A stretch of 64,000 nucleotides of DNA. It comes from Escherichia coli. Lineage in GTDB: Bacteria > Pseudomonadota > Gammaproteobacteria > Enterobacterales > Enterobacteriaceae. A model generated the notes under the pieces. It was not told the DNA's origin. It ran no database searches and saw nothing but the letters and a program-made list of their open reading frames with translations. Positions 24,096-24,591 of this stretch are shown here, piece by piece (the first letter of the stretch is position 1; every line of letters starts with the position of its first letter). A program made the position numbers and the translations under genes. The stretch lies in the NCBI RefSeq assembly GCF_003019035.1, contig NZ_CP027447.1. The stretch is one strand, 5' to 3'.

Positions 24096-24151
24096 TTTCC
24101 GATTAAGAACCTGCTCAGCGGGTTCTTGCTGTTTGTACTTTGTCTCAGGAA

Positions 24152-24211
24152 TTACTTACGAAGCATAACTTCGATAAAGTCTTTCCAGTTCCCCAGTTCA
24201 CGTTCAATCAT
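24152..24211 (-). CDS. ypfM: Small protein YpfM (19 aa)
   Basis: Minus-strand ORF MIERELGNWKDFIEVMLRK with AGAGAGG ribosome-binding site; below the ORF-track size cutoff; recalled from K-12 annotation. Confidence 0.7.
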   Translation of the reverse strand: MIERELGNWKDFIEVMLRK

Positions 24212-24591
24212 AACAACCTCTCTTATAATTATGGGTATTCTACGGAAACAATATACCGTGGTGAAGCTAATTTACTCGATTGCTGCGATGACTACCTCCG
24301 GGGGACAAACCTTATGTAAATACTATGGTCCTGCGGTGATAATTTGTATGTGATACACAGCAACATTTCGAGATATTCATACGGCATCTAATACTGATTT
24401 AATTCTGGTTAAAATACAGACAGATAACAAGATGAATATTCTTAATGTTTACGTTAAAAATGTTTAATGTTATTTAATAGTTGTTAATTTGAATACTTCG
24501 ATAATGTTATATTTCCTGATAATCATTTGCAGGCAAAATGTTTTCACCCTTAAATGAGTATTTATTCTCATAAATCGAAAAAGGATTCATT

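Follow-up and report, generated by a model that had tools for sequence, protein, structure and literature searches.

Does the DNA between acrD and yffB of Escherichia coli hold anything that an ORF track passes over? The original prediction pointed to a 19-codon ORF on the minus strand, and to a long AT-rich gap between this ORF and yffB with room for promoters or a small RNA. The locus thus raises two questions, whether the ORF is a gene and what the gap contains. Both were addressed within a 64,000-nucleotide stretch of the E. coli chromosome (the window), whose coordinates are converted into those of MG1655 by adding 2,566,655 (comparison with NC_000913.3).

In the window, acrD (20940-24053, plus strand; K-12 counterpart b2470) is followed by the short minus-strand ORF, the 380-bp gap, yffB (24592-24948, plus strand; K-12 b2471), which encodes an ArsC-family reductase and is the first gene of yffB-dapE-ypfN, and dapE (24952-26079, plus strand). 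The ORF, which proves to be ypfM, is therefore convergent with acrD and divergent from yffB. At the far end of this gene group, the ORF lister places the ypfN start at a GTG at 26083 (26083-26307, 74 aa), whereas the K-12 product has 66 aa and starts with the ATG at 26107. The arrangement around the ORF is a stable part of the species: a 561-bp query over the region of interest matches 5,425 of 5,426 complete E. coli genomes and is covered over at least 80% of its length in 5,411, with an identity of at least 99% in 3,481 records and of 95-99% in 1,944. Identity to K-12 over the 561 bp is 99.1%, the gap differing by a few bases. One source-tracking study employs the acrD/yffB intergenic region as a host marker (PMC11267920).

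Identity and conservation of the 19-codon ORF

The ORF at 24152-24211 (minus strand, 19 codons plus stop) translates to MIERELGNWKDFIEVMLRK*, in agreement with the position and translation originally given, and the peptide is identical to YpfM of K-12, the name it had been given there. In NC_000913.3, ypfM is b4606 (YP_001165325.1, complement 2590807-2590866), and RefSeq carries it as 'protein YpfM' (WP_001386977.1), a label found under the match in all but one E. coli genome among the RefSeq matches listed. The description of the ORF as unannotated is thus true only of the ORF track, where it was missed because its 19 aa fall below the 20-aa minimum of the ORF lister. This is a gene already known, predicted since 2001 and annotated since about 2008, whose protein has been detected.

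By itself, a 19-codon ORF is uninformative, since ORFs this short arise readily by chance; the ORF list contains 83 of at least 20 aa in 5 kb. We compared 80 loci from different species, gathered through YffB and not including Salmonella, and in 70 of them an ORF that matches in length (19 codons) and orientation lies divergent from yffB. These 70 ORFs comprise 53 distinct nucleotide sequences that encode 20 peptides. Heterozygosity is 0.064, 0.070 and 0.256 at the first, second and third codon positions, dN/dS is 0.087 and the two other frames are closed. The maintenance of an ORF of the same length across species, with the variation at third positions, therefore places ypfM above chance. The Shine-Dalgarno AGAGAGG (24217-24223, minus strand) lies 5 nt before the ATG, and its GAGAGG shows a conservation of at least 90% in the comparison of 58 sequences, which bears out the good ribosome-binding site of the original prediction.

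The synteny acrD-ypfM-yffB-dapE spans Enterobacteriaceae. Among the 80 species loci, no copy of ypfM was found in Yersinia, Lonsdalea and most Erwinia. In Lelliottia nimipressuralis, one locus beyond the 70, the stop codon has been lost (MIERELGNWKDFIEDMLRNDL...) and the peptide is extended. Diverged copies with 5 substitutions, still divergent from yffB, are found in Dickeya undicola and [Erwinia] mediterraneensis, outside Enterobacteriaceae proper. Since the Dickeya copy has no adjoining acrD, the pairing of ypfM with yffB predates the link to acrD.

Evidence at the protein level comes from the literature. In a 2025 proteomics study, top-down mass spectrometry covered 100% of the intact, N-formylated YpfM; the peptide was further detected by DIA and PRM, and an earlier detection was credited to Schmidt et al. 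(PMC12529367). The translation signal to which the original prediction had looked is in effect supplied by this published detection of the intact peptide. Taken with the K-12 annotation and the conservation, it establishes 24152-24211 as ypfM, a known and translated gene under strong protein-level selection. Little or no variation affects the hydrophobic residues I2, L6, W9, I13 and M16, and only positions 4 and 15 vary freely. YpfM is a soluble 19-residue peptide that, judging from its residues, probably forms a short amphipathic helix, and it may act by binding a larger protein.

Transcription of ypfM and a conserved element upstream

A single promoter-like site was reported by the promoter scan between 23900 and 24700, on the minus strand at 24237-24265. 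This sigma-70 promoter, here P1, has the -35 TTCACC (24265..24260), a 17-bp spacer and the -10 TAGAAT (24242..24237), with 9 of 12 consensus matches. The same hexamers were named for ypfM by genomic SELEX with the RpoD holoenzyme (PMC3946193), and every genus in the alignments has kept them, together with the leader and the Shine-Dalgarno. Directly upstream of the -35, the consensus of 58 sequences shows a further conserved stretch (24266-24290; on the minus strand, ATCnnAGnnATnGnnTAAA). Transcription from P1 would start near 24230. Neither ypfM nor yffB figures in the supplements of Adams 2021 and Yan 2018.

On the other side of the ORF there is an intrinsic terminator at 24058-24093 (AAAAAGGCGAC...GTCGCCTTTTT), recognized by the terminator scan with 14 pairs in a G+C-rich stem that a U run follows. 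It is bidirectional, common to acrD on the plus strand and ypfM on the minus strand, and is conserved in 25 of 26 genera aligned, with 5 stem pairs retained through changes on both sides. Another hairpin (AAGAACCCGCUGAGCAGGUUCUU; 24104-24128, minus strand) was found by scan and folding in the 3' UTR of ypfM, and alignments inspected by eye show a hairpin of differing sequence at this position in other genera. Since the scan scores this hairpin as a possible terminator of plus-strand transcription as well, acrD could be stopped by two signals in tandem. We suggest that ypfM is transcribed alone, as a small mRNA of about 175 nt with a leader of about 19 nt carrying a strong Shine-Dalgarno, the 60-nt ORF and, downstream, some 97 nt of 3' UTR that include one hairpin. 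This transcript would end at the intrinsic terminator that stops acrD from the opposite side. The predicted RNA (24230 to about 24055) folds with z = -3.6, mainly due to its hairpins.

An RNA of this kind is known from Salmonella. Sittka et al. (2008) mapped STnc250 to acrD/yffB and equated it with the ypfM ORF, describing a stable short mRNA of about 220 nt on Northern blots (PMC2515195). This exceeds the length of about 150 nt predicted there for P1, which leaves room for a second, upstream promoter of ypfM.

Upstream of P1, the comparison of 58 sequences revealed two conserved motifs, a TACTATG (24321-24327) and a 39-bp block (AAATTTTATGTGAYnnnnnGCAAYATTTTGAAA; 24340-24378), which begins at a constant 22 nt from it. 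The pair (TACTATG; ATGTGAYN5GCAAYATT) occurs in 58 sequences, which represent more than 20 genera. It lies 134-150 nt away from the ATG of ypfM, while its distance from yffB varies between 155 and 894 nt. Given the near-fixed distance to the one gene and the variable distance to the other, the pair belongs to ypfM. RNAalifold on the 58 sequences gave no consensus structure at the block on either strand (0.0 and -0.11 kcal/mol), and likewise none in a stricter plus-strand extraction (only 7 sequences). The block therefore probably acts as DNA. We suggest that the motif pair most likely binds a regulator or serves as a second promoter of ypfM, and it may represent an operator not described before.

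Could the block be mainly a second sigma-70 promoter upstream of ypfM (minus strand), rather than the site of a regulator? Such a promoter would have the -35 TCGAAA/TTCAAA and the -10 TACAAA/TAAAAT, with a start near 24336. Hexamers at 17-18 bp are readable in most genera (TTCAAA-18-TAAAAT), the distance between block and ypfM is fixed, and the transcript, about 280 nt in E. coli, would parallel the Salmonella RNA in being longer than P1 predicts. However, the E. coli hexamers are weak and do not appear in the output of the promoter scan, the long leader that would result has no conserved structure, and the best-conserved bases (TTGC, TCACA) lie within the would-be spacer, a part of promoters that is not normally conserved. 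We regard a mere promoter as possible and rather doubtful. The location of the most conserved bases points rather to a protein-binding site, and if the operator reading is true, the factor that binds there would be the first functional handle on YpfM.

The known regulators that we compared with this site do not account for it. Consensus scans gave no match to the CRP 22-mer at up to 3 mismatches, leaving the block unexplained by CRP, and no match to the IHF core in the gap. Marbox matches are at chance level over the window, the gap having only matches with 3 mismatches; a MarA ChIP peak has been reported in the ypfM<>yffB spacer of Salmonella (PMC10268841). Sites for sigma-54, sigma-32, sigma-E, sigma-28, CytR, PurR, ArcA, OxyR, GntR and MarR were considered by eye, and none fitted the block. 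The conserved ATG-TGA inside it, which could be taken as a 'start-stop', was rejected since no conserved Shine-Dalgarno precedes it.

The AT-rich gap and a probable yffB promoter

The gap had been described as AT-rich, non-coding and roughly 380 bp long, and each of these points was confirmed. From 24212 to 24591 it measures exactly 380 bp, with 31.3% GC against 52.4% in the whole window, and only 0.2% of 380-bp segments are as AT-rich. It has no conserved ORF: small ORFs of 31, 33, 27 and 22 aa can be drawn in it, but their start codons are not conserved and none is kept across genera. The lowest GC, 24-24.5%, occurs over 200 bp from 24391-24401 onward, and the AT-rich core (24380-24500, about 24% GC) is not alignable outside Escherichia.

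Genomic SELEX classed this spacer as divergent and bound in vitro by the RpoD holoenzyme and H-NS (PMC3946193). Three matches to the H-NS motif TCGATAAATT with 2 mismatches lie in or beside the gap, although the count in the window (66, with 57 expected) is at chance. Two more AT-rich spacers, reaching 21.5% GC, flank yfgG in the pdeF(yfgF)-yfgG-yfgH region of the window (62270-62620 and 62815-63127), and the first of them was also marked as H-NS-bound (PMC3946193).

Two genomes, NZ_CP109874.1 and NZ_CP088131.1, which belong to strains EC488 and 81, carry IS1 at this locus. In EC488, the IS1 lies in the AT-rich core (about 24380-24410). In strain 81, whose IS1 has about the same position, ypfM and acrD have been lost through an IS1-bounded deletion, and narQ too, judging by the K-12 gene order, so that aegA is now found upstream of the IS1. 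In both strains, yffB retains about 200 bp of its upstream DNA.

On the yffB side, a conserved 9-mer at 24505-24513 (plus strand), TGTTATATT, has the form of an extended -10 and probably represents the promoter of yffB-dapE. The 9-mer is unchanged in 26 species loci from 8 genera (Escherichia, Citrobacter, Enterobacter, Lelliottia, Leclercia, Silvania, Huaxiibacter and Intestinirhabdus), where it precedes yffB by 65-109 nt, and Klebsiella-type genomes have a variant of it. A convincing -35 was not found before it, as is usual for extended -10 promoters. The start would be near 24520, giving a leader of about 72 nt, and the Shine-Dalgarno AAGGA (24581-24585, plus strand) is 6 nt before the ATG at 24592, within an AAAGGAT that is conserved across genera. 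A different promoter, TTCATA-16-TTTAAT at 24376-24403, was predicted elsewhere (PMC3946193), but it is not conserved beyond Escherichia and Citrobacter, and we favour the extended -10. In Salmonella, yffB has a 97-nt leader (reporter from -97) and is repressed by the sRNA SdsR (PMC5137417).

Right after the -10, and overlapping the probable yffB start, there is a Fur-box-like sequence, TGATAATCATTTGCA (24517-24531, plus strand). It has 2 mismatches to the Fur 7-1-7 consensus TGATAATNATTATCA and is one of only two matches at this stringency in the 64 kb; at up to 3 mismatches, the window has 9 matches where 2.2 are expected. Another Fur-like match (61982-61996) lies inside the pdeF CDS and is probably due to chance. 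In agreement with the box at yffB, loss of fur in Salmonella raises yffB 2.6-fold (PMC3212961). Outside E. coli, E. albertii retains the box, whereas Citrobacter and Enterobacter lack it; it also sits in AT-rich DNA, where chance matches come easier. As it is kept only within Escherichia, control of yffB by Fur is only a lead.

We propose that the gap controls the divergent transcription of ypfM and of yffB-dapE-ypfN. Its parts would be P1 and the motif pair on the ypfM side, and the extended -10 with the Fur-like box over the start on the yffB side, while the poorly conserved AT-rich core would bind H-NS, in vivo as well, and attract IS1.

Small RNA candidates at the locus

A covariance-model search places Rfam family RF01409, STnc250, at 24053-24172 (minus strand), over the last codons of ypfM, its 3' UTR and the terminator. 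The match covers model positions 1-94 of 94 with 37.6 bits (E 1.3e-5). Its shortfall from the gathering score of 42 is due to the hairpin, a stretch of 36 nt in E. coli that stands against 9 nt of the model. Its context agrees with Table 2 of PMC2515195, which lists acrD/yffB and the strand opposite both genes. Weaker Rfam matches (CsrC, STnc240 and others) all fall on the terminator hairpin and are not meaningful. The sRNA-like RNA of this locus is thus the ypfM mRNA itself, STnc250, which lies on the acrD side and outside the gap.

The same RNA might have two functions, encoding YpfM while its 3' UTR acts as an Hfq-dependent base-pairing regulator. Besides being a stable short RNA, STnc250 was recovered in Salmonella Hfq co-immunoprecipitation with a 4-fold enrichment, 24 against 6 reads (PMC2515195), and the 3' UTR has the usual Hfq module of a hairpin, an A/U-rich linker and a terminator with a U tail. 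That enrichment is low, however, and based on few reads; the sequence from the stop codon to the terminator is poorly conserved and lacks a seed-like block, the substitutions in the ORF fit a protein-coding gene rather than an RNA constrained at every site, and there is no known target. A regulatory role of the 3' UTR is in our opinion improbable, and STnc250 is best taken as the mRNA of YpfM.

For an independent, unannotated small-RNA gene inside the gap, the prospects are poorer still. The gap is long enough for one, the 39-bp block has a -10-like TACTAT before it on the plus strand, and one window per strand folds slightly better than shuffled sequences (z of -1.8 and -2.1). Yet the scan for intrinsic terminators was negative on both strands of the gap, with no site beyond 24131; there is no Rfam match above noise in the gap, and no RNA gene is annotated there in NC_000913.3. 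Folding in the gap is unremarkable, 12 windows of 120 nt on both strands giving z from -2.1 to +2.2. The 58 sequences have no consensus structure on either strand, and the sequence downstream of the block is not conserved. An inverted repeat seen in E. coli (CTCGATTGCTG ... CAGCAAcattTCGAG) is not kept in other genera and was treated as chance. Such a gene is accordingly very unlikely, and the room that the original prediction saw in the gap appears to be taken by promoters, with conserved elements for both ypfM and yffB.

Finally, the idea that the ORF is an untranslated chance frame within a non-coding RNA, to which the frequency of random 19-codon ORFs and the first cataloguing of the locus as an sRNA candidate might lend colour, runs against the low dN/dS, the identical length in 70 species and the conserved Shine-Dalgarno, is refuted by the published mass spectrometry of intact YpfM, and can be discarded with near certainty.

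With high confidence, then, we read the locus as the known gene ypfM and a divergent promoter spacer, transcribed in opposite directions, with no hidden sRNA in the gap. As a discovery, ypfM matters little here, and the value of the analysis lies mainly in clarifying the locus. Two modest leads come out of it, namely the yffB-dapE extended -10 with its Fur-like box in Escherichia, and the ypfM-linked upstream element, which could point to the regulator and the physiology of YpfM.

Comparison with known systems

The closest comparison is with K-12 itself, where b4606 encodes the same 19 aa on the same strand and in the same position between acrD and yffB; there is no difference, and this is the same gene in another strain. 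STnc250 of Salmonella (RF01409) shares the intergenic region and the strand and is matched over the full length of the model, differing in that the E. coli match falls short of the gathering score owing to the hairpin described above. STnc250 was itself reclassified as a small mRNA by its own authors, in the same paragraph as yneM/mgtS (STnc570), which came from the same screens (PMC2515195). The likeness extends to the gene structure, since yneM/mgtS is likewise monocistronic, with its own promoter and terminator and a peptide of less than 35 aa. Whereas MgtS resides in the membrane and has a known partner, YpfM is charged and has neither a hydrophobic span nor a known partner.

The dual-function RNAs SgrS/SgrT and Spot 42/SpfP resemble STnc250 as small Hfq-associated RNAs that encode a very small protein, but STnc250 has no base-pairing target or conserved seed, and its Hfq enrichment is weak. 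The gap as a whole finds its counterpart in the 'type-A' divergent spacers binding the RpoD holoenzyme and H-NS (Shimada et al. 2014). Their table gives the yffB promoter as 24376-24403, whereas conservation here suggests 24505-24513; in other respects the ypfM/yffB spacer, which is among those tabulated, fits the class, being AT-rich and having promoters both ways.
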